Shown here in pieces: positions 11,261 to 19,870 of a DNA stretch of 20,000 bases (positions within the stretch are counted from its first letter, which is position 1; every line of letters starts with the position of its first letter). The position numbers and the translations under genes are program-made. The notes below the pieces were generated by a model that worked only from the letters and a program-made list of their open reading frames with translations, did not search any database and was not told the origin of the DNA. This DNA is from an uncultured virus (IMG/VR IMGVR_UViG_3300048029_000465) (lineage: Duplodnaviria; Heunggongvirae; Uroviricota; Caudoviricetes; Demerecviridae): IMG/VR virus record IMGVR_UViG_3300048029_000465, one strand, 5' to 3'.

Positions 11261-12709
11261 TTAGTTAGCGTTGTTGTATCCAACGTAGACAGCTGCTGAC
11301 TTACCAGAAGCTGCGTCAAACAACTCGTCGAAGCCAAGGTGCTGTGAAGCAACAAGGACTCGGCGCTGAGCAGCTACTTCGTAGTCTTGCTCAACAGTTA
11401 CGCCGCGAAGACGGGGCATAACAAAGTTGCTTGGGTTGATGACAAATGCGCCACCAAAACCGTCTTCTACGTCTGCAGTAAAGTTATCAGAAACAATTAC
11501 TGGAGAACCGAAGACACTACCTACCTGACCTACACGACGTAGAGCCAAATCTGAACCTACTTCATCCACAGTAGTGAACTCAGCGTCATTCAGAAGATCG
11601 TAGTAGTGAGCCTGGCTTACAACGTAAACCAACTCGCTTGGATTAAGGCCATATACGCCCATCGCGCTACGAGCACGGTTAAGCATAGCTGCTGAGAAGT
11701 CGAGGAAGTGAGCATCGCTTGCAGCTGCACCAGCGCCCCAAGTTACACCGGCTGCTGTTGCTAGACCGTTAGTGCCGTTAGCACCACCGATACCAGTGAC
11801 GTTGCCACCGTTACCCTGGAGGATTGACTTGTCTACTGCGCGAGCGTGTGCACGTGCGATTGACTGAGTAAGCATAGGCATGATGTTGATAAGAACTTTC
11901 TCGTCGATGTAGTTATCGAGGAAAGAAGTTGAGATCAAACGATCCACTTGCAATACTTTCTGGTTTACAGCATAAGTGTTGCTAGAGTAAGAATCGTTAC
12001 CAGTACGGTTAGTTACACCAGTACCAGTACCATCGTCCGCAGCTTCCATGCCACCAGTTGACCACTTAGCAAAGCTAGTGTCTGACTGCAGAGGAATTAC
12101 TGTAGACTGTGACTCAACAGGCATTTCACGGAAGAGGCTAGCGAGACGAAGCTCGAGTTGAATCTCTTCTTCAATACCCTGAGAAACTACGTTGTCGATA
12201 CCAAGAGAAGTACCTGCAGTGTAAGAAACACCTGCCTTCTCAAGTACTGACTGACCGAACTCAGTGTTCCAGCCTTTACCAGTGATAACACCAGCGAGGT
12301 GGCCGTGAACCAACTCTTTCTTATTAGCTTGCAGACGCTCAGACTCTGAACGACCATCAGCGAATACACGCTTTGACTCACGCATTTTAGTGAGCTCTTC
12401 TTCCTTCTCAGCAAGTTGAGCACCAAACTGCTTCATCACTTCATCAATCTTAGCATCTTTCTCAGAAAGCTTAGCTTCCATATCAGACATCAAACGCTCA
12501 GCGCCTGACTCGATACCAGTTTTAATTACAGTTTCAACTTCAGCCTGCTTTGCAGCTTCAGCTTCTGCTGCTTGTTGGGCTGCCTTAGTTTCTGCTTCAA
12601 CAGCAGCTTTTTCTTCGGCCTGACGAATTGCAATCTTAGCAGCAGTCTCTTCCGCTACCTTCTTAGCAAAAGCGTCCAGGTCGATTTCGGGAGTTTTTAC
12701 TTCCGACAT
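11261..12709 (-). CDS. Major capsid protein precursor from internal start (Met204 of fusion ORF), 482 aa
   Basis: In-frame ATG at 12709 preceded by AAGGAG-ATAACA, a strong SD with 6-nt spacing, exactly at the protease/scaffold boundary. Confidence 0.8.
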   Translation of the reverse strand: MSEVKTPEIDLDAFAKKVAEETAAKIAIRQAEEKAAVEAETKAAQQAAEAEAAKQAEVETVIKTGIESGAERLMSDMEAKLSEKDAKIDEVMKQFGAQLAEKEEELTKMRESKRVFADGRSESERLQANKKELVHGHLAGVITGKGWNTEFGQSVLEKAGVSYTAGTSLGIDNVVSQGIEEEIQLELRLASLFREMPVESQSTVIPLQSDTSFAKWSTGGMEAADDGTGTGVTNRTGNDSYSSNTYAVNQKVLQVDRLISTSFLDNYIDEKVLINIMPMLTQSIARAHARAVDKSILQGNGGNVTGIGGANGTNGLATAAGVTWGAGAAASDAHFLDFSAAMLNRARSAMGVYGLNPSELVYVVSQAHYYDLLNDAEFTTVDEVGSDLALRRVGQVGSVFGSPVIVSDNFTADVEDGFGGAFVINPSNFVMPRLRGVTVEQDYEVAAQRRVLVASQHLGFDELFDAASGKSAAVYVGYNNAN

Positions 12710-13318
12710 TGTTATCTCCTTTTGAACTGACTTTTCAGTTCCATCCGGTGTATCACTAGCTACTAATGAATTTTCATCTTGAGCCAGAGACTGACCGGCT
12801 AGATCTACACTATTTTTGAAAGTTTTCTTGAACTCTTCGTACTCATCAACTGAGTCAAAAGACTTCGCCAGAGAGAAAGTTGCTGCTTGATTACAAGGTA
12901 CCGAAACAACCGATACTTCAAACAACTCAGCATCCTTAATCTTTAATCCGTCGGTTTCCGCTAGGTAATCAGCATCCTTGACTCGGAAACCAACAGAAAA
13001 TGCTCCAAGAATGCCTTCTTTTACAAGCTGCGCTACATGATCGGGCGCAGATTTAGAAATTTTAGCCTTTAGTTCGAGACCGTTTTCAGTGACTTTAAGT
13101 CCTGTAGCACGTCCAATAGGCTTGTTATAGTCGTGATTAAAAAGAATAATAGGGTTTTTCTCAAAGTTGCCGAGACCACCCTTAGTCCATGCTTCCGCTG
13201 AAATAGTATCTCCAGCACGATCGAAGTCCGCAGTACTGGCCATTCCACAAATGTGAACGCCTCCATCGTCTTCTTCGAGGGCTTTAAACGTGGACGTTAA
13301 GTTAAAAATCTTTTCCAT
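11261..13318 (-). CDS. Fused HK97-type prohead protease + scaffold (delta) domain + major capsid protein
   Basis: N-terminal ~150 aa carry prohead protease motifs (ASTADFDRAGD, ILFNHD, PIG, AFSVGF, LFEVSVVSVPCN). These are followed by an acidic linker, an Ala/Glu/Lys coiled coil and an HK97-fold capsid region (DKSILQGNG, GSVFGSPVIVSD, LVASQHLGF). Confidence 0.92.
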   Translation of the reverse strand: MEKIFNLTSTFKALEEDDGGVHICGMASTADFDRAGDTISAEAWTKGGLGNFEKNPIILFNHDYNKPIGRATGLKVTENGLELKAKISKSAPDHVAQLVKEGILGAFSVGFRVKDADYLAETDGLKIKDAELFEVSVVSVPCNQAATFSLAKSFDSVDEYEEFKKTFKNSVDLAGQSLAQDENSLVASDTPDGTEKSVQKEITMSEVKTPEIDLDAFAKKVAEETAAKIAIRQAEEKAAVEAETKAAQQAAEAEAAKQAEVETVIKTGIESGAERLMSDMEAKLSEKDAKIDEVMKQFGAQLAEKEEELTKMRESKRVFADGRSESERLQANKKELVHGHLAGVITGKGWNTEFGQSVLEKAGVSYTAGTSLGIDNVVSQGIEEEIQLELRLASLFREMPVESQSTVIPLQSDTSFAKWSTGGMEAADDGTGTGVTNRTGNDSYSSNTYAVNQKVLQVDRLISTSFLDNYIDEKVLINIMPMLTQSIARAHARAVDKSILQGNGGNVTGIGGANGTNGLATAAGVTWGAGAAASDAHFLDFSAAMLNRARSAMGVYGLNPSELVYVVSQAHYYDLLNDAEFTTVDEVGSDLALRRVGQVGSVFGSPVIVSDNFTADVEDGFGGAFVINPSNFVMPRLRGVTVEQDYEVAAQRRVLVASQHLGFDELFDAASGKSAAVYVGYNNAN

Positions 13319-14842: not shown

Positions 14843-15212
14843 GTTTATCTCTTTGAATCTCTACCCAGCGCATCTGCTTATTCGCAGTCACTAGGGCTGG
14901 ATTTCTGCCGTATAATCTGTGCAGTTCCAAATGATGTTTATGGCAAAGCGTGACTGTGTGCTCGTACAGCTCCGCCCATTTATCTTCTATAAACTCGTCT
15001 CGCCAAATTACTATATATTCGTCCGTATAGTGTGCAGGCCTTTCTTTTTGTTTTTCTTTTAGCCACTCTCTTAGTAGAGGGGCTAGAGTGTAAAAGTGGT
15101 GAAAGTCGAGTTCTGTGTCAGCGCCACAAATGTAGCATTCTGAACCTTTTTCATACTTTGATTTAGCTCGATCTCTTATGTATTTTACTGGATCTCTTTT
15201 TAGCTTTTTCAT
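14829..15212 (-). CDS. HNH-family Zn-binding endonuclease (putative terminase cofactor / nicking endonuclease)
   Basis: CYICG...LDFHHF...TLCHKHHLELH pattern; located between terL and portal, where T5 has a nicking endonuclease. Confidence 0.78.
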   Translation of the reverse strand: MKKLKRDPVKYIRDRAKSKYEKGSECYICGADTELDFHHFYTLAPLLREWLKEKQKERPAHYTDEYIVIWRDEFIEDKWAELYEHTVTLCHKHHLELHRLYGRNPALVTANKQMRWVEIQRDKHGMV

Positions 15213-15217
15213 TTTGA

Positions 15218-15259
15218 ATTATAGCCCTTGTAAGATAAATTGTCAAACACTATTTTTTG
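15218..15259 (-). promoter_or_regulatory. Perfect-consensus sigma70 promoter with UP element (head operon)
   Basis: Minus strand CAAAAAATAGTGT-TTGACA(15246-15241)-17 nt-TATAAT(15223-15218), in the terL-HNH intergenic gap. Confidence 0.92.
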
Positions 15260-15268
15260 TAGGTATCA

Positions 15269-16573
15269 TTAGAAGCCAGTCTGAGTTGTTTCAAATGAAT
15301 ATAGTGCGTATCGTAAAGCATCTGCCATATGCGATGCTCGATTATGTTTCGGCTTCTCTCTTGCTAAATTAGGATTGGGATCCCACTGATACTGATCAAG
15401 ACATCCAAGTACTTCACCGCATCGCTGATCGACCATCATTTTATCATTGTCAACAATTCCTGCCACTTGTGCAATTCCATCTAGTACTGACTTTTTTGCA
15501 TTTACAGTACTAATATCGTAATTCTGTGCGAAGTCAAATCGAGTTTGTTGTGCTGCGGAATCTATGTAAATATAGTCGATGTCCCACTTGTCAGAGAGTT
15601 CTCGAATTACAGCGGCATGTTGTTCTGTTGTCTTTTCGGCATCAAGGTACTCATCTAATACGTAATACGTTTCTTCATCCCAATCATACGCAATTACACA
15701 GAAAGCCGTAGGGTCACGATAGCCAACGTCGAGGCCAGCAAAAACATCCATGTGGCGAGTATCAAGCTCCTCATTATTACTGATACACTTTTCGTGATTA
15801 AAGTTCCATATTTGGCCTTCGTAAGTGTTAAAGTCTGCTTCATATTCTTGACGAAATTCTGCATCGGACATAGATTTTTTAGCTTCTTGTATATCCATCT
15901 CAGACATACGCGGATTATCTTTATAAGTAGCTCGTATCGAGCACCACTCTGGAAACTCATCATTAAATCCTCTATCGAAAAATTCTGCAAACCAGTTGTT
16001 CCTGCCCCGAGGGGTTGAAATAAAGATAGCTTTTGAGTTATCTTTATCCAAAGTAGGACGAAGTGCTACGTTGAACGCATCACGTCCGTCTGCCAAGGCC
16101 GCTTCGTCAAATATAATGAGATCGTAGCTACGACCTACACAGGAATCAACTTGGTTTACGGAACCCATTCGAACTGTTGAGCCATTGCTCAGTTCTATAA
16201 CTTTATCTTTTGCATTGTCTTTTGCTACTTCCAAGTCAAAGTGTTTAATAAGATTTCTTTGTAAATCAAAAGAAATCTGAGACAGCGAGTAGTTGGGGGA
16301 CATGATTAAGATGTTAGATCCGGGAACTAAAGATACAAGTTGCCCGATTATGTTTGCGATATATGTTTTGCCTTGTCGCCTTGAAACTGCTGCGCAGACA
16401 AATCTGTACTTAGGATTATTAATCGCATTTATGATGGCTACCTGGGAGGGTAAGGGTGTAACGCCCAGCAGATCCAGGTAGGGATCTGTGGGCAGCTTTA
16501 AGAAGCGTGTCTCAGATTGTAAATCTAAAATTCCTTCAGACGTAATGTCTGCTCGGCTAATTTGTACTGCCAT
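15269..16573 (-). CDS. terL: Terminase large subunit
   Basis: 434 aa; Walker A VSRRQGKT, Walker B LIIFDEAA, coupling motif ISTP, nuclease motifs GLDVG..D and HMADALRY. Confidence 0.96.
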   Translation of the reverse strand: MAVQISRADITSEGILDLQSETRFLKLPTDPYLDLLGVTPLPSQVAIINAINNPKYRFVCAAVSRRQGKTYIANIIGQLVSLVPGSNILIMSPNYSLSQISFDLQRNLIKHFDLEVAKDNAKDKVIELSNGSTVRMGSVNQVDSCVGRSYDLIIFDEAALADGRDAFNVALRPTLDKDNSKAIFISTPRGRNNWFAEFFDRGFNDEFPEWCSIRATYKDNPRMSEMDIQEAKKSMSDAEFRQEYEADFNTYEGQIWNFNHEKCISNNEELDTRHMDVFAGLDVGYRDPTAFCVIAYDWDEETYYVLDEYLDAEKTTEQHAAVIRELSDKWDIDYIYIDSAAQQTRFDFAQNYDISTVNAKKSVLDGIAQVAGIVDNDKMMVDQRCGEVLGCLDQYQWDPNPNLAREKPKHNRASHMADALRYALYSFETTQTGF

Positions 16574-16578
16574 AATTA

Positions 16579-17010
16579 TTACTCAGATTGTTGATCTTCT
16601 AAAGTTTCTTCGTTTCGTTCTATCCAATCTTCTGCGTCAGTGTTCTCATCTTCTTGAGTAGCTTGGCGGTAGTAGATTATAATTTCTTTTTGTTGGCGAA
16701 TATATCTACGTAGCTCTTGTAGATTGTACGCCATGTTTTCGTAATCTTGTGGAGTAAGTCCAAAGAGTACATAAGTTCCATCTTGCATCTTTTCGAGCTT
16801 TTTAATTTGCTCATCAAGATTCTTTTCTGTAACTACGAAAAACTCTACATCTTGCATATCAATTGCTTTTGGGAGCGGAGGTTGATATATCTCTAAAGTT
16901 TTAAACTCTGTTACCGTTTTAATAATAGGTTCGGGCACTGGAAGGGGCTGAGGTTGCAGCATAGAACACCCTCCGAGTGTGAGTAAAAGTACACTACTGA
17001 GAATCCGCAT
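16579..17010 (-). CDS. Putative o-spanin (outer-membrane lipoprotein)
   Basis: Signal peptide with lipobox LGGC, Pro-rich segment (PQPLPVPEP, QPPLP) and C-terminal helix; overlaps the end of the i-spanin candidate. Confidence 0.72.
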   Translation of the reverse strand: MRILSSVLLLTLGGCSMLQPQPLPVPEPIIKTVTEFKTLEIYQPPLPKAIDMQDVEFFVVTEKNLDEQIKKLEKMQDGTYVLFGLTPQDYENMAYNLQELRRYIRQQKEIIIYYRQATQEDENTDAEDWIERNEETLEDQQSE

Positions 17011-17416
17011 TCTCTACCTCCTGGCTTGCCTCTTCTATGGCACGAAATACGTCTTTCGTACCGTTGTTTATTCGTGGTTCAATCAACCCTGGTTTTGCGC
17101 GAGCAAGTTTAGTAAGATTATGGCGCTTGAAAATAGATAAGTAGTCGTCCATCTCTGCTTGCATTGCATTTGCTTTTTCTGTCAGTGCTCCAACCATCTC
17201 AAGTTGTTTAGTTAAGTTTTTTTCTACTCGTTCTCGTGCAGCTACTTCCGTTTCATAAGCCGTTTCTAGTTTTACTACGTTATTACGAAGTGTAACTATA
17301 TTTGCTTCGAGCTGTGCTATTGAAGTATCCTTTTGAGCCACAGTAGTGGTATGATAAGCGTACGCGCCTCCAGCAACTACGACTAACAAGGGTAAAAGTT
17401 TAATCATTCCAAGCAT
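16994..17416 (-). CDS. Putative i-spanin
   Basis: Single N-terminal TM (LLPLLVVVAGGAYAY) followed by a long predicted coiled coil; directly upstream of the lipoprotein gene. Confidence 0.72.
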   Translation of the reverse strand: MLGMIKLLPLLVVVAGGAYAYHTTTVAQKDTSIAQLEANIVTLRNNVVKLETAYETEVAARERVEKNLTKQLEMVGALTEKANAMQAEMDDYLSIFKRHNLTKLARAKPGLIEPRINNGTKDVFRAIEEASQEVENADSQ

Positions 17417-17685
17417 TACTTTACCTTTTTAATCTGGAAATTAAACGCATCTTGCGTTTTTAACTCAAAGGGCTCTCCAGATGTGAGTTTTCCTTTTAAG
17501 TGTTTTGGCTCGCATTTATCAAGCCATTTAAAGTGATACTGAGTTTTCTTTTGAGGGTCTATCCAAATAGTTACTTCCCACTCATTAATAAAGAAACTAA
17601 CAATCCAGTGTACCGGCCAGGAGACAATTTTCAATAAAATTTTCCCAGCGCTTTTCAATTTCTTCCCGCTCTTTGTAAGTAGCAT
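17416..17685 (-). CDS. Hypothetical protein (start uncertain)
   Basis: 89-aa ORF, TAATG-coupled to the i-spanin. The annotated start overlaps the upstream gene by 89 nt, so the true start may be later. Confidence 0.6.
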   Translation of the reverse strand: MLLTKSGKKLKSAGKILLKIVSWPVHWIVSFFINEWEVTIWIDPQKKTQYHFKWLDKCEPKHLKGKLTSGEPFELKTQDAFNFQIKKVK

Positions 17686-17884
17686 ATAATGCTTCCTTTT
17701 GGCTATCCGGAGATTGGTGGTACTCTACCCACTCTTCCGGAGTCATAAACTTCTTTTTCGGGTACGACACTCCAAGTTCAAAAGTGTAGTACATTTGTCC
17801 TGTTACTAAGTCTTCGGTGGACTCTAAATTTGGTGCCATAGCTACGCAGCCACTCAAAAATAAGAGTGGCAGTAATCGAATCAC
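17597..17884 (-). CDS. Small lipoprotein, unknown function
   Basis: MIRLLPLLFLSGC: basic residue, hydrophobic core, LSGC lipobox; GTGA overlap with the upstream stop. Confidence 0.7.
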   Translation of the reverse strand: MIRLLPLLFLSGCVAMAPNLESTEDLVTGQMYYTFELGVSYPKKKFMTPEEWVEYHQSPDSQKEALYATYKEREEIEKRWENFIENCLLAGTLDC

Positions 17885-18213
17885 TTCTTACTCGAGTACG
17901 CCTGCGTTCCAAAGAAGGCTGCTACTACTGCTGCTACAGACACAAAATAAGTGGCCGCCATATCTCCAAGTATTTTTGAAGCTTGATCGAGTCCAATCCA
18001 ATCTGCTAGCACAACTGCAAAGGGGTATAAAAGAAGTCCTGCAAGTGCAAACCATGTCATGTTTCGTTGGGCATCTCGCATTGCATCTAAATCTTCTAGC
18101 TCTTTACGCTTAAACTCAAGATACATTGCGTGCTCTTCTGCGGAGACATGACCGTCTCCATTAGTATCTGCAGGATGGTGCTTAGTTACTTCTTCGCTCA
18201 CTTCTTTCCCCAT
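17881..18213 (-). CDS. EF-hand-loop, two-TM membrane protein (holin candidate)
   Basis: DTNGDGHVSAEE loop; two hydrophobic helices (WFALAGLLLYPFAVVLA; YFVSVAAVVAAFFG); basic C-terminus SSKK. Alternative start GTG 18201 (GTGA overlap). Confidence 0.68.
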   Translation of the reverse strand: MGKEVSEEVTKHHPADTNGDGHVSAEEHAMYLEFKRKELEDLDAMRDAQRNMTWFALAGLLLYPFAVVLADWIGLDQASKILGDMAATYFVSVAAVVAAFFGTQAYSSKK

Positions 18214-18605
18214 TTAGCCATAGCAAACTTTAATGCTACGTCTCCTGGAAGGTAGAACCACTTGTCTTTTTTGTGCCCAAGTTTTTCCATCTCTTCCCAC
18301 TCAACAAACTTTTTAGTCCAGTTGTCTGCCCAGTGCTTTTCAAAACGAAGAACAGCGTGCCCTCCTCCGTTTTTTGTAATAACTCTACGAATTTGCGCTT
18401 TGCCTATACATAAGTACCACCAAAACTTCCACATAGACTTATCACTAATTAAGTATAACAATGTAAGCGCGTAGTCTTCACAGTCACCTATGTAAGGGTG
18501 CTCCTTCATGATTTGCCAGTGCTCTCGTTTTGCGTACTGGTCAATGTCGTACTTATATGCCCAAGTTGAATTTAGTTCTTCGACTTCACGCTCAAACATT
18601 ACCAC
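18198..18605 (-). CDS. Transglutaminase-like cysteine peptidase (BTLCP / peptidase C93 / LapG-like), minimal domain
   Basis: LN...Y.YD...Y...EHW, GDCEDYA (catalytic Cys), GHAVL (His), WADN (Asp) in the order characteristic of the BTLCP family; no signal peptide. Confidence 0.8.
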   Translation of the reverse strand: MVMFEREVEELNSTWAYKYDIDQYAKREHWQIMKEHPYIGDCEDYALTLLYLISDKSMWKFWWYLCIGKAQIRRVITKNGGGHAVLRFEKHWADNWTKKFVEWEEMEKLGHKKDKWFYLPGDVALKFAMAKWGKK

Positions 18606-18904
18606 TTCACCTTATCAGCCCAGTAAGCAGCGCTCATCTTACCCTTTGCAATATTCTTTGCGTGACGAGCTTTAAAGCTTCGTCGCTTTGCTTTCATTGC
18701 TGCACTTTCACCAGCTTTTGGTTTTCCTGCAGTCTTTGCGCCTTTTTGCCCAAATCGAATCGTTTTGATTTTGTCACCTACCTTTGCTACGACGATGTGG
18801 GACTTCTTTGGGTGGCCGGGAGTACGACGAGGTTTGTTGTACCCTTTTACCCTTGCACGCGCTAATCGTGGATCTTTCTTTCTACCTTTTCTTTTTGCCG
18901 CCAC
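18599..18904 (-). CDS. Highly basic small protein
   Basis: 101 aa, K/R-rich; structured core KKSHIVV...KTIRFGQKG...RRSFKARH...SAAYWADKVKW; GTG start. Confidence 0.8.
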   Translation of the reverse strand: MAAKRKGRKKDPRLARARVKGYNKPRRTPGHPKKSHIVVAKVGDKIKTIRFGQKGAKTAGKPKAGESAAMKAKRRSFKARHAKNIAKGKMSAAYWADKVKW

Positions 18905-19163
18905 GTTTCTTTCTCCTTACAAAAGTTTTCACCATTGTAGGCTTGCCTCCAGGGTTACCAGCTTTACGCTTTCTACGAATTGCTGAACGCCTTTCTGCGG
19001 CTGTCATACGTGCTGCTTTTGATGCAGGCACGCACTTTGGATATTTTCCTTTCTTGGAAGTCTTTCGACCACAAGGTTTATACCCCCCGCCTTTTTTCGG
19101 GCGGGAGATATCTACCCACTTTTCTTTAAACCATTTGCTGAGTCCGCCTTTGGGTTTAGCCAT
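18882..19163 (-). CDS. Highly basic small protein
   Basis: 93 aa; GLSKWFKEKWVDI...CGR...YPKCVP core; TAATG-coupled to the upstream 42-aa ORF. Confidence 0.8.
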   Translation of the reverse strand: MAKPKGGLSKWFKEKWVDISRPKKGGGYKPCGRKTSKKGKYPKCVPASKAARMTAAERRSAIRRKRKAGNPGGKPTMVKTFVRRKKRGGKKKR

Positions 19164-19291
19164 TACTTAAGGTCGCTGCCGCCAGAACCACCAGCTTTAG
19201 GGCCCTTGCCTTTAGGGCCCCCAGGACCTTTTCGCTTATTCCACCACCACCAGGCACCGCCTGCGACAACTGCTAGTACAATCCATTCCAT
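19163..19291 (-). CDS. 42-aa single-TM microprotein (not in ORF track)
   Basis: Manual translation MEWIVLAVVAGGAWWWWNKRKGPGGPKGKGPKAGGSGGSDLK*; fills the gap exactly (ATG 1 nt after the upstream TAA; TAATG overlap downstream). Confidence 0.78.
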   Translation of the reverse strand: MEWIVLAVVAGGAWWWWNKRKGPGGPKGKGPKAGGSGGSDLK

Positions 19292-19292
19292 T

Positions 19293-19481
19293 TTATTTAC
19301 CCATGCGGTATTTTCCGCCTTGTGCCTTGTAAGTTTTTACAAGCCATCCGTTTGCATAAGCTGAAGGGTATACTTTAAATTTACGCTTCGCTTGTGCTTT
19401 AATACGTGCGTACAACTTTTTATTTGTAGGCACTGGTCGTTTCTTGGCAACTTTGCGCTTACTTCTTTTTCTTACCGCCAC
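19293..19481 (-). CDS. Highly basic small protein
   Basis: 62 aa with no Asp/Glu; PTNKKLYARIK...YPSAYANGWLVKTYKAQGGKY core. Confidence 0.8.
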   Translation of the reverse strand: MAVRKRSKRKVAKKRPVPTNKKLYARIKAQAKRKFKVYPSAYANGWLVKTYKAQGGKYRMGK

Positions 19482-19521
19482 GACGCTTTCTCTTTTTAGT
19501 ATGACTCATACCGCAGGCCAT
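19459..19521 (-). CDS. 20-aa protamine-like micropeptide (not in ORF track)
   Basis: MACGMSHTKKRKRRGGKKKK*; ATG overlaps the upstream TAA (TAATG), and it bridges the gap to the next gene. Confidence 0.55.
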   Translation of the reverse strand: MACGMSHTKKRKRRGGKKKK

Positions 19522-19682
19522 TACTTCTTGCCTCGCTTCTTTTTACGAAGCATAGCTTTTCGCAATGCTGGGGGAAGCTTCTTCTGTGCTGCTGTTAAAC
19601 CTCCCATAGACTTCTTTTTCTTGCCGCCCTTTTTAGCTGGACGTCCGCGCTTTTTACCGTAAGTACCTTTACCTGCTGGCAT
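19521..19682 (-). CDS. 53-aa basic protein with AT-hook-like motif (not in ORF track)
   Basis: MPAGKGTYGKKRGRPAKKGGKKKKSMGGLTAAQKKLPPALRKAMLRKKKRGKK*; TAATG-coupled at both ends; 22 K/R and no D/E. Confidence 0.8.
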   Translation of the reverse strand: MPAGKGTYGKKRGRPAKKGGKKKKSMGGLTAAQKKLPPALRKAMLRKKKRGKK

Positions 19683-19870
19683 TAGTCTTCCTCTGCGATA
19701 GCCTCTTCCATGCTATCGTATTCCCGAACTTCGGGTATCGGTAGTTCAGGAGGAGTCCAGGGTTTCCAAGTAGACTCTCCCTTTGTATATGCTTCGGCAG
19801 CTTCTTTGCTGTCAAAGCTTTTTCCTTTACCTTTAACGCACCACCTGCCTTTTCGTTGATATACTTCCAT
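19682..19870 (-). CDS. Hypothetical protein, basic N-terminus and acidic C-terminus
   Basis: 62 aa; TAATG-coupled at both ends. Confidence 0.72.
   Translation of the reverse strand: MEVYQRKGRWCVKGKGKSFDSKEAAEAYTKGESTWKPWTPPELPIPEVREYDSMEEAIAEED

Follow-up and report, generated by a model that had tools for sequence, protein, structure and literature searches.

A candidate split lysis system with an accessory LapG-like cysteine peptidase in an uncultured marine T5-like siphophage

Introduction

Whether a tailed phage might dispense with a canonical endolysin and lyse its host with a cysteine peptidase instead is the question raised by a locus next to the large terminase gene (TerL) of an uncultured virus. 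The locus lies in a 20,000-nucleotide stretch of DNA (hereafter the window) whose terminase, portal and tail genes are of T5 type. An initial annotation proposed that the C93-like peptidase encoded there, in a cassette without a canonical endolysin, is released by a calcium-sensing EF-hand holin and serves either as a new class of endolysin or as a cutter of envelope tethers or adhesins. The evidence assembled here points to a different arrangement, to which we assign a probability of roughly 0.6: a split lysis system in which a holin with an EF-type loop and a pair of spanins are encoded near TerL, the endolysin is encoded in the early region, and the peptidase is accessory cargo.

Organization of the locus

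Six overlapping, translationally coupled open reading frames occupy positions 16579..18605 of the minus strand, just as the initial annotation had placed them, and their coordinates give successive overlaps of 16, 4, 89, 1 and 17 nt. The first, the peptidase gene, shares 7 nt with an upstream gene (18599..18904, minus strand) for a highly basic 101-aa protein (phrog_7595) that ends a series of small basic proteins; the last, the o-spanin gene, is followed after 5 nt by the T5-type TerL (16573-15269, minus strand; Pfam and PHROG matches). These two neighbors are the conserved left and right borders of a variable region, and the cassette is housed in this slot between the TerS/basic-protein genes and TerL. 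In Vibrio phage D252, the nearest cultured relative, TerS stands immediately before TerL. Promoter-like sites between positions 15000 and 20000 occur at chance level (11, against 9.2 +/- 3.1 in shuffled sequence), and no terminator-like site was found on the minus strand within the cassette. A Pfam scan of 28 window ORFs recovered no lysozyme, amidase, M15 or other peptidoglycan-hydrolase family, in agreement with what had been noted for the window.

Spanin genes and their companions

The 140-aa and 143-aa products of the last two genes of the cassette are, as judged from sequence features, the i-spanin and the o-spanin. The Rz-like i-spanin (16994..17416, minus strand) matches phrog_739 over residues 7-132 (E 1.6e-13) and has a transmembrane segment at residues 1-19 followed by a coiled-coil-like periplasmic part with weak matches to coiled-coil Pfam families. 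The Rz1-like o-spanin (16579..17010, minus strand) matches phrog_812 (E 4.1e-15), carries the lipobox LGGC and ends in an acidic C-terminus. As in the two-component spanins of the lambda Rz/Rz1 type, a coiled-coil protein with an N-terminal transmembrane segment is paired with an outer-membrane lipoprotein encoded by the adjacent gene. The window pair departs from that model in several respects: its o-spanin is long and acidic with a single cysteine, at the lipobox; the two genes overlap by 17 nt with neither embedded in the other; and the pair is accompanied by an extra lipoprotein gene and an overlapped small-protein gene.

The first of these companions (17597..17884, minus strand) encodes a predicted outer-membrane lipoprotein of 95 aa, whose lipobox LSGC can be read directly from the sequence. 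The second (17416..17685, minus strand) encodes a basic 89-aa protein with a weakly hydrophobic N-terminal segment and no match in Pfam or PHROG. Its gene shares 89 nt with the lipoprotein gene, read in a different frame, and relatives preserve both reading frames. The lipoprotein is co-inherited with the 89-aa gene and the spanins, and one related locus (L108) has these four genes as a module without an EF-loop gene within the stretch examined.

The EF-loop protein

Upstream of the lipoprotein lies the gene for a 110-aa protein (17881..18213, minus strand) with two hydrophobic spans, at residues 52-70 and 85-103; no other protein in the window has two clear transmembrane spans. The initial annotation described it as an EF-hand, holin-like protein, a description that holds for the two spans and for a conserved loop but finds less backing in Pfam, where the matches are sub-threshold (EF-hand_5, 16.7 vs 25.9 bits; EF-hand_1, 13.3 vs 25.4). 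The loop itself, D16-T-N-G-D-G-H-V-S-A-E-E27, has the canonical 12-residue pattern, with ligands at positions 1, 3, 5 and 12, glycine at 6 and a hydrophobic residue at 8. Of 13 diverse homologues, all keep D16, G21 and E27 and at least 90 per cent keep G19, and in a set of 31 sequences D16, G19, D20, G21, V23 and E27 are all invariant. A low-confidence AF2 model (pLDDT 64.8) has a single loop and no helix before residue 25.

This family is very abundant and unannotated, comprising 7478 clusters at 90 per cent identity. Searches of Pfam and PHROG gave it no annotation and matched no holin family, and in the ESM Atlas only viral clusters labelled 'hypothetical protein' were retrieved. Its carriers are marine phages of Pelagibacter, OM43 and Roseobacter hosts together with the T5-like group considered here. 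The gene adjoins lysis genes in several unrelated phages, with annotated endolysin, holin or spanin genes beside it in Roseobacter phages CRP-207, CRP-701, CRP-810 and CRP-345.

For the T5-like group, 22 relatives that span the interval from the 101-aa basic protein to TerL were retrieved with queries other than the peptidase. The EF-loop protein was found in 19 of them, and it is therefore read as a probable holin. It is also small, has transmembrane spans and is encoded two genes upstream of the spanin pair. Taken together, these features suggest that the 110-aa protein is probably a holin or a holin partner. With the two-component spanin (PHROG matches, transmembrane segment, lipobox and overlapping genes), such a holin-like protein bears out the earlier description of the locus as a lysis-type cassette, and positions 16579-18213 may be viewed as one half of a split lysis system of this marine T5-like siphophage, the half that disrupts membranes. 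In nine loci of a second type (type B) the EF-loop protein is replaced by a 157-159-aa phrog_1544 membrane protein with TM-like hydrophobic segments. The 158-aa representative was considered as a GTA-type holin with three transmembrane segments, a candidacy that was set aside: it had no Pfam match at E <= 0.01 and matched only phrog_1544, a family without an assigned function.

The LapG-like peptidase

The first gene of the cassette (18198..18605, minus strand) encodes a cysteine peptidase of 135 aa related to BTLCP/C93 enzymes, the true start of which may be the ATG at residue 3. Its predicted catalytic residues C42, H83 and D94 follow the Cys-His-Asp order of LapG, and D41-C42-E43-D44 corresponds to the calcium-site motif (D-C-E) of LapG and DvhG. 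D41, C42 and H83 occur in all 75 family members examined, as does an acidic residue (E or D) at position 43; D44 is kept in 71 of them and D94 in 73. The window protein alone matches PF06035 at 24.7 bits (E 2.3e-5), under the gathering cut-off of 27, and 39 of the 75 members match this Pfam family at E <= 0.01 (best, 1.5e-8). Searched singly against the PDB, the peptidase sequence retrieved nothing below E 0.2; the family profile did match LapG there, with the catalytic Cys and His aligned. LapG profile and fold matches thus place the protein with the LapG-type transglutaminase-like fold, consistent with the BTLCP-like assignment made initially.

In LapG and DvhG calcium is bound by the acidic residues that flank the cysteine (excerpts of PMC13090378 and PMC4359373), and an acidic D/E beside the catalytic cysteine is required for calcium-dependent activity in both enzymes (the same part of PMC13090378). 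By its sequence, then, the phage peptidase keeps the calcium-site residues of LapG. It lacks a signal peptide and a transmembrane span, and no hydrophobic N-terminus was detected in it or in any of the 75 family members, so its earlier description as signal-less extends to the family.

Endolysins of related phages

Given that the window itself encodes no recognizable muralytic enzyme, the relatives offer a way of asking whether one is to be expected elsewhere, and this check found muralytic genes in three of them. An upstream walk in IMG/VR with an exonuclease gene, the Hydrolase_2 gene and a 98-aa protein as queries reached relatives and, in the window's own sub-lineage, extended to ~10 kb. 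A complete relative (G002; 101,258 bp, CheckV 100 per cent, TerL 83 per cent identical) encodes a T4-type lysozyme (PF00959, 43.4 bits) adjoined by a homologue of the T5-type M15C L-Ala-D-Glu peptidase. The latter matches the endolysin family phrog_465 (9.3e-18) and the PDB entries 23ri_A (2.2e-9), 8q2g_A (1.9e-8) and 2mxz_A (1.9e-5). On the assumption that the two ends of the linear contig join, which is suggested by synteny with a second relative (L132) continuing past the end of the contig and resuming at its beginning, this pair lies ~16.8 kb from the EF-loop/spanin cassette. The EF-loop protein and the spanins are retained in G002, and a 75-sequence peptidase profile found no family member in it. 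A T4-type lysozyme (30.1 bits) is likewise encoded in L132. In a third relative (L126) the peptidase occurs together with a SleB-like Hydrolase_2 protein (80.5 bits; phrog_938 endolysin) that has a signal-peptide-like N-terminus and is encoded ~15 kb from the peptidase gene. No lysozyme or Hydrolase_2 was found in the nearest virus record, a 12-kb fragment (G001), and a scan of genome contigs gave one irrelevant match (32 per cent).

The muralytic enzymes of the relatives are thus encoded in an early region ~15-17 kb away, outside any 20-kb stretch that is centered on the cassette. With canonical enzymes of this kind present in relatives, the initial view of the cassette as lacking an endolysin is not supported. 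By comparison with relatives whose TerL is 82-92 per cent identical, the endolysin of the window phage most likely lies outside the window in its early region, and the apparent lack of a canonical endolysin most likely reflects where the window ends.

Distribution and neighbors of the peptidase gene

The two upstream genes of the cassette differ in how widely they are kept: the EF-loop protein occurs in 19 of the 22 independently fetched relatives, the peptidase in only 6. The peptidase is missing from a close relative (L131, TerL 92 per cent) in which the EF-loop, lipoprotein, 89-aa and spanin genes are all present; another (L128) resembles the L126-type arrangement minus the peptidase; and a third (L066) has a peptidase 88 per cent identical to that of the window.

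Viewed from the peptidase outward, the neighborhood is constant in kind. At 48 IMG/VR peptidase loci the gene directly downstream is the EF-loop gene in 31 and a phrog_1544 membrane-protein gene in nine; at four loci a DUF1353 TM protein and a 2-TM peptide are encoded in between, and at a further four the peptidase gene overlaps the start of a T4-type lysozyme gene, such that all 48 place the peptidase beside a holin-like or lysozyme gene. In a quick tree, with support given by SH-aLRT only, the lysozyme-adjacent peptidases nest within the clade of the window peptidase (SH-aLRT 97-98). In the same tree the peptidases of this slot fall into three or more separate clades, and a second, distant clade (that of L126, 40 per cent identity) also adjoins the EF-loop gene, in reversed order. 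More distant homologues occupy contexts other than lysis cassettes: near tRNAs and an RNAP in an N4-like Vibrio phage, near a phosphoesterase and an RNA ligase in DSS3 phages, and between tail-spike/depolymerase-like genes in Aeromonas phage PS1 and in L118. In view of these contexts, the placement seen here could mark an insertion hot spot. From its sequence and distribution, the peptidase is read as an optional, horizontally mobile accessory gene and not as a new class of endolysin.

Discussion

Several known systems bear on this locus. T5's own lysis genes are grouped together in its early region. The T5 system comprises a holin, the calcium-activated M15C enzyme EndoT5 and spanins, and it has a counterpart in the EndoT5-like M15C of G002, also encoded in the early region; unlike in T5, the holin-like gene and the spanins here adjoin TerL, apart from the endolysin. 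EndoT5 is described as 'calcium-activated' in the part of PMC10487532 consulted, and there is therefore a precedent in T5-type phages for an enzyme that is switched on by periplasmic calcium. The peptidase for its part resembles LapG and DvhG (BTLCP, MEROPS C93, PF06035; PDB 4FGO, 4U65) in its Cys-His-Asp triad and in the acidic residues flanking the cysteine. It is smaller, at ~135 aa against ~180-200 aa for the crystallised LapG chains, and it is phage-encoded without LapD, LapA or T1SS neighbors. LapG-type enzymes cut LapA-type adhesins at a [T/A/P]AAG site. PeiW and PeiP act as virus lysis enzymes, this fold being able to cut a wall polymer. These pseudomurein endoisopeptidases of methanogen proviruses (PDB 8JX4, 8Z4F) share with the peptidase a broad transglutaminase fold class and a Cys-based mechanism. 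The literature search retrieved no paper on Peptidase_C93 in phage. Similar in kind are the BTLCP auxiliary genes of river viruses, which are also small, sporadic and discordant in their tree with the viruses that carry them (ISME J 2024, PMC11283719, in part); the sections of that report consulted place none of them in a lysis cassette and assign no mechanism. The recurrent position of the peptidase beside holin-like or lysozyme genes is a finding of the present analysis.

There is some reason to entertain the peptidase as the endolysin itself, since the window holds no muralytic Pfam domain and the peptidase is translationally coupled to a holin-like gene. That proposal would also predict a lysozyme in the equivalent slot of other phages, as occurs in CRP-207, where an annotated lysozyme lies upstream of the EF-loop homologue in the position that the peptidase holds here; the label of this protein (gp73, putative lysozyme) is the depositor's alone, and no PDB sequence matched it at E <= 0.001. 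Yet the peptidase is missing from 16 of the 22 relatives and from G002, which has a lysozyme and an M15C enzyme and keeps the EF-loop protein and spanins, and in L126 the peptidase coexists with Hydrolase_2. At the four loci where it stands beside a T4-type lysozyme it can therefore be at most a partner. An endolysin role for the peptidase in a genome devoid of a canonical one is accordingly considered very improbable. A more serious competitor, if still an unlikely one, would have the peptidase unrelated to lysis, a mobile BTLCP gene lodged in a hot spot and directed at LapA-type adhesins, at capsule control in the manner of LapG or HvyA, or at virion or extracellular targets. Its sporadic distribution, the multiple clades sharing one slot and the varied contexts in other phages, including that between tail-spike/depolymerase-like genes, all favor such a role, as do reports that BTLCP is the top auxiliary gene in river single-virus genomes, with a tree that departs from viral clusters (from the portion of PMC11283719 seen), and that the BTLCP homologue HvyA governs capsulation and phage susceptibility in Caulobacter (PMC4241560, in excerpt). 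However, LapG acts in the periplasm (PMC13090378, in the part consulted), where its substrates also lie, and none of the 75 family members has an export signal, so that they would still depend on some passage through the membrane. A role outside lysis also sits poorly with the holin-like or lysozyme neighbor at all 48 loci of this phage group, a type of neighbor that was retained after the peptidase had moved between the halves of the split lysis system.

The EF-loop protein invites a similar reservation, in that it could be an antiholin or timing regulator, a superinfection-immunity protein or an ion channel, with the true holin being another small gene or one located elsewhere. It is 65-76 per cent identical to homologues of pelagiphage HTVC008M and OM43 phage Melnitz (76 per cent in the T4-like OM43 phage), a conservation across morphotypes and hosts that is unlike that of typical holins. 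In T4-like pelagiphages the homologue is placed among baseplate genes, its neighbor in CRP-701 and CRP-810 is annotated as a holin in its own right (phrog_3427), and phages of the L108 type have the lipoprotein, 89-aa protein and spanins without it in the stretch examined. Against these observations stand the absence from the window of any other gene product with two clear TM spans, the relatives, L213 for example, that encode no other membrane protein than this one in the interval from the basic proteins to TerL, and the exchange in type-B relatives for another TM-like protein, as is often seen with holins. On balance a function other than that of a holin seems rather unlikely.

Under the preferred reading of a split lysis system, the EF-loop protein would open the inner membrane as a holin, and the lipoprotein and 89-aa protein would travel with the spanins. 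The peptidase would presumably be inactive in the cytoplasm, where calcium is scarce, and probably acts only once the holin has opened the membrane; it might then be admitted to the calcium-rich periplasm or to seawater, become active and assist lysis by cutting a substrate in the envelope or associated with peptidoglycan. It is tempting to go further and envisage a calcium-keyed fourth layer of lysis, in which the EF-loop holin senses calcium and the same calcium activates the LapG-like peptidase in the periplasm, although this extension is speculative and its truth doubtful. The cytoplasmic EF-type loop would in that case sense the first inflow of seawater calcium and trigger all-or-none holes, and the latent peptidase (a mini-LapG) would cut an adhesin anchor, an outer-membrane tether or peptidoglycan stem peptides. 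Were this so, a single ion would control the opening of the membrane as well as an accessory enzyme, lysis might be faster or progeny freed from debris and aggregates, and a gene now catalogued among viral 'AMGs' would in fact serve lysis.

The more striking claim with which this locus was introduced, a lysis cassette without an endolysin and a new endolysin class in its place, most likely dissolves. The papers listed by a literature search on holin, EF-hand and phage dealt only with endolysins and other topics, and we know of no earlier lysis protein with a calcium-type loop. Should the EF-loop protein prove to be a holin or to time lysis, it would rank among the commonest lysis proteins in the surface ocean. 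The phage mini-LapG peptidases have so far been counted as frequent viral auxiliary genes without a mechanism; their lack of an export signal, their calcium site and their holin or lysozyme neighbors together provide a testable idea of when and where these enzymes may act.

Cassette layout and genomic setting

The six-gene cassette proposed in the initial annotation was borne out, with all six ORFs found on the minus strand where it had placed them: a peptidase (18198–18605, 135 aa), a protein with an EF-type loop (17881–18213, 110 aa), a lipoprotein (17597–17884, 95 aa), an 89-aa protein (17416–17685), an i-spanin (16994–17416, 140 aa) and an o-spanin (16579–17010, 143 aa). Consecutive overlaps are 16, 4, 89, 1 and 17 nt; the gene for a 101-aa basic protein (18599–18904) overlaps the peptidase ORF by 7 nt, and 5 nt separate the last cassette ORF from the start of the large terminase gene TerL (15269–16573, minus). 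Promoter-like sites between 15000 and 20000 occur at chance level (11 versus 9.2 ± 3.1), and the cassette contains no terminator-like site on the minus strand, which is consistent with a single transcription unit continuing into TerL. The only full sigma-70 consensus in that interval (12/12; TTGACA, 17 nt, TATAAT) is at 15246–15218 (minus), within the TerL 3′ end and shortly before the HNH gene start (15212).

Every long ORF of the window is on the minus strand, and PHROG and Pfam matches reveal a T5-type structural and packaging module of tape measure, tail chaperones, baseplate tube, major tail protein, tail terminator, head–tail adaptor, prohead-protease/capsid fusion, portal, HNH protein and large terminase, the last ∼50 per cent identical to that of 114-kb T5-like Vibrio phages. 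One 685-aa ORF (11261–13318, minus) matches both the Peptidase_S78 prohead serine protease (residues 34–155) and Phage_capsid (377–543), and appears to be a protease/major-capsid fusion. Small, very basic proteins (phrog_7595, phrog_23735 and DUF5872-like; 18599–19870, minus) are encoded in a row upstream of the cassette, separating its lysis genes from TerS. The 101-aa member shares 76 per cent identity with a protein that adjoins the EF-loop homologue in Roseobacter phage CRP-207 (L003:3380–4000), and weakly matches part of phrog_220, ‘minor head protein and DNA pilot’ (E 4.9e-5).

The 140-aa protein matches phrog_739 (Rz-like spanin, E 1.6e-13) and has a TM span at its N-terminus, while the 143-aa protein matches phrog_812 (E 4.1e-15) and carries the lipobox LGGC; the 95-aa protein has a lipobox, LSGC, and the 89-aa protein matched no Pfam or PHROG family. 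The lipoprotein and 89-aa genes (17416–17884, minus) share their 89 nt in different frames, both conserved in relatives. Encoding an outer-membrane lipoprotein and a small protein that is hydrophobic near its N-terminus, these overlapping genes recall another spanin-like pair whose order is inverted. Together with the i-spanin and o-spanin genes they form a four-gene module, which is found in L108-type contigs too, there lacking the EF-loop gene (L108:1324–2671).

Endolysins outside the equivalent window in relatives

No wall-hydrolase domain (lysozyme, amidase, M15 or any other) was found in the 28 window ORFs scanned, and the cassette had accordingly been regarded as lacking a canonical endolysin and perhaps encoding a new class. 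This argument is undercut by comparison with three relatives, L126, L132 and G002, which encode endolysins outside the equivalent window. L126 has a Hydrolase_2 protein (PF07486, 80.5 bits; phrog_938 endolysin), with an N-terminus that reads as signal-peptide-like, ∼15 kb from its peptidase. L132, 90 per cent identical in DNA to L131 where the two overlap, lacks Hydrolase_2 at the syntenic spot and has a T4-type lysozyme (30.1 bits) ∼600 bp beyond. G002, an IMG/VR record of 101,258 bp with a completeness rating of 100 per cent, carries an EF-loop protein, a DUF1353 protein, an 88-aa protein, i-spanin, o-spanin and TerL at 83–86 kb and no member of the peptidase family; at 1.9–2.9 kb it encodes a T4-type lysozyme (43.4 bits), followed by a protein homologous to M15C L-alanyl-D-glutamate peptidases, among them chain 2mxz_A, the T5 endolysin. 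The two genes are adjacent and overlapping (L239:1426–2410 = G002:C1:1891–2875). Synteny with L132 leaves the G002 contig at its end and resumes at its start; if these ends are joined, ∼16.8 kb would separate the two parts of the lysis system. In L126, L132 and G002 alike, the endolysin would fall outside a 20-kb window placed around the terminase-side half, and its apparent absence here is most likely an artefact of the window edge. The lysozyme is preceded by a LapG-like peptidase in loci L049–L051 and paired with the M15C homologue in G002, so that the partner peptidase differs between two lineages.

A variable slot around a constant EF-loop protein

Four arrangements were seen at 48 IMG/VR loci collected with the peptidase as query, all peptidase-positive by construction. 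The order basic protein, peptidase, EF-loop protein is found at 31; at nine all downstream genes are replaced by a 157–159-aa phrog_1544 protein with hydrophobic, TM-like segments, sometimes with an added 102-aa TM protein; at four a DUF1353 TM protein and a small 2-TM peptide separate peptidase and EF-loop gene; and at four the peptidase overlaps the start of a T4-type lysozyme gene (PF00959, 32.5 bits). Because this sample is biased by its construction, relatives were also collected with other genes as queries. Among 22 that span basic protein to TerL, some of them near-duplicates (L222/L223, L224/L225, L228–230/232), the EF-loop protein is present in 19, the spanin pair in nine and the peptidase in six. 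L131 (TerL 92 per cent identical) lacks the peptidase but retains the other five cassette members, from EF-loop protein and lipoprotein to the 89-aa protein and the two spanins; in L126 a 40 per cent identical copy is located after the EF-loop gene, and at that position L128 has a 56-aa ORF in which the peptidase's first residues run on into the end of the small ORF that follows, which looks like the product of a deletion.

Other genes recur in this slot. A ∼190-aa DUF1353 protein with a hydrophobic N-terminus adjoins the EF-loop gene in 6/22 relatives, complete G002 included (examples are L043:1793–2377, L130:1381–1959 and L222:4852–5427); its family, phrog_1158, is labelled ‘tail assembly chaperone’ in PHROGs, a poor fit to its position, and it may be an additional lysis-cassette component. 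Across this phage group, proteins of ∼140–160 aa with a C-terminal TM span recur adjacent to the EF-loop gene or close by (L126:3630–4103, L128:2614–3084, L234:3272–3721, L004:4095–4520); the L004 and L234 copies weakly match phrog_32327, which also covers CRP-701 gp24 (L053:1743–2219), annotated ‘peptidase’ and two genes upstream of its EF-loop homologue. A 226–261-aa phrog_8198 protein (L013:3867–4586, L047:3722–4402, L222:5763–6548) lies, depending on the relative, before the peptidase, TerL or the EF-loop gene, which shows free gene shuffling within the basic protein–TerL interval.

The 110-aa EF-loop protein is the constant, lysis-linked element of the cassette. It has hydrophobic spans at 52–70 and 85–103, a sub-threshold EF-hand match and 7478 relatives at E ≤ 0.001 (clusters at 90 per cent identity); it belongs to no family in Pfam or PHROG, and the Atlas clusters that contain it are viral and unnamed. 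Ten cultured-phage records contain it. Among Roseobacter phages it neighbours annotated lysis genes: CRP-207 has a putative lysozyme directly upstream, CRP-701 and CRP-810 have a phrog_3427 holin followed by a glycoside hydrolase directly downstream, and CRP-345 has a spanin-like gene followed by a putative endolysin downstream. In T4-like HTVC008M and Melnitz, baseplate genes flank it. The liganding positions of the EF-type loop (D16 to E27) are kept in 13/13 diverse homologues aligned, and a cytoplasmic location of both termini, hence of the loop, is suggested by basic residues ahead of TM1 and at the C-terminus. The low-confidence AF2 model (pLDDT 64.8) shows no helix leading into the loop and so falls short of establishing a canonical EF-hand. 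The protein (17881–18213) is 76 per cent identical to that of OM43 phage Melnitz and 65 per cent to that of Pelagibacter phage HTVC008M, both T4-like (L002, L052), and 64–74 per cent to many relatives in its own siphophage group, lower than to T4-like proteins; these identities suggest recent exchange of the gene across phage morphotypes and hosts.

A LapG-like peptidase and its possible link to lysis

The peptidase is a cut-down LapG. It scores marginally below threshold against Pfam C93 (24.7 bits, cut-off 27). An exhaustive HMMER search returned 281 family representatives at E ≤ 0.001, of ∼120–145 aa among the 150 matches listed, and 39 of 75 aligned members match PF06035 at E ≤ 0.01. The family profile matches LapG structures 4u65_E (E 2.5e-5) and 4fgo_A (1.3e-4), anchored on GDCEDYA and H-x-V-L motifs, and with the confident AF2 model (pLDDT 93.5) LapG chains were the only significant Foldseek matches. 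D41, C42 and H83 are invariant in the 75-member alignment, and D94, N95, G40, D44, Y17, D20 and W30 are each at least 90 per cent conserved. Passages of one report state that LapG-type activity needs a C-H-D triad with a neighbouring calcium site, and that DvhG is inactivated by D316A/E318A, either side of C317 (PMC13090378). The acidic flanks of C42 are kept in the phage family (D41 in 75/75, E or D at position 43 in 75/75, D44 in 71/75). Unlike LapG, none of the 75 members has a hydrophobic N-terminus.

Whether this enzyme belongs to lysis has evidence on both sides. In a quick tree the lysozyme-adjacent copies of L049–L051 nest inside the window's peptidase clade (SH-aLRT 97–98), and longer versions of these contigs carry the lipoprotein, 89-aa, i-spanin and o-spanin module, 52–79 per cent identical, ∼7 kb upstream; the peptidase thus adjoins a holin-like gene or a lysozyme in close relatives. 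Copies in L126/L234 and L221 fall in other, distant clades of that tree, yet occupy the same 1–2-kb slot. Against a tie to lysis, distant homologues are found near tRNAs in an N4-like Vibrio phage, beside a phosphoesterase in DSS3 phages, between tail-spike or tail-fibre genes in Aeromonas jumbo phage PS1 (L121:2603–5632) and, in L118, flanked on both sides by tail-spike or tail-fibre genes with pectate-lyase-like domains (L118:7634–12098), the last two hinting at action at the cell surface or in the virion. A published survey describes viral BTLCP as a frequent auxiliary gene that moves horizontally (PMC11283719). A lysis-accessory role is the likeliest single reading, and far from certain.

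The 110-aa protein would open the inner membrane, through which an early-region endolysin and the signal-less peptidase could enter the periplasm; the peptidase may be idle at cytoplasmic calcium and switched on there, and after wall cutting the spanins would fuse the membranes. The T5 endolysin is described as ‘calcium-activated’ in the abstract of PMC10487532, a precedent in this phage type for calcium-dependent activation of a lysis enzyme. Of the calcium-gated module first envisaged, the lysis cassette, the LapG-like calcium-type peptidase and the conserved EF-type loop stand; the missing endolysin, and with it the new endolysin class, most likely reflects the window edge. The novelty lies in a variation on something known, a split lysis system: its terminase-side half includes an EF-loop holin candidate that is abundant and unannotated, joined in some lineages by a signal-less mini-LapG.
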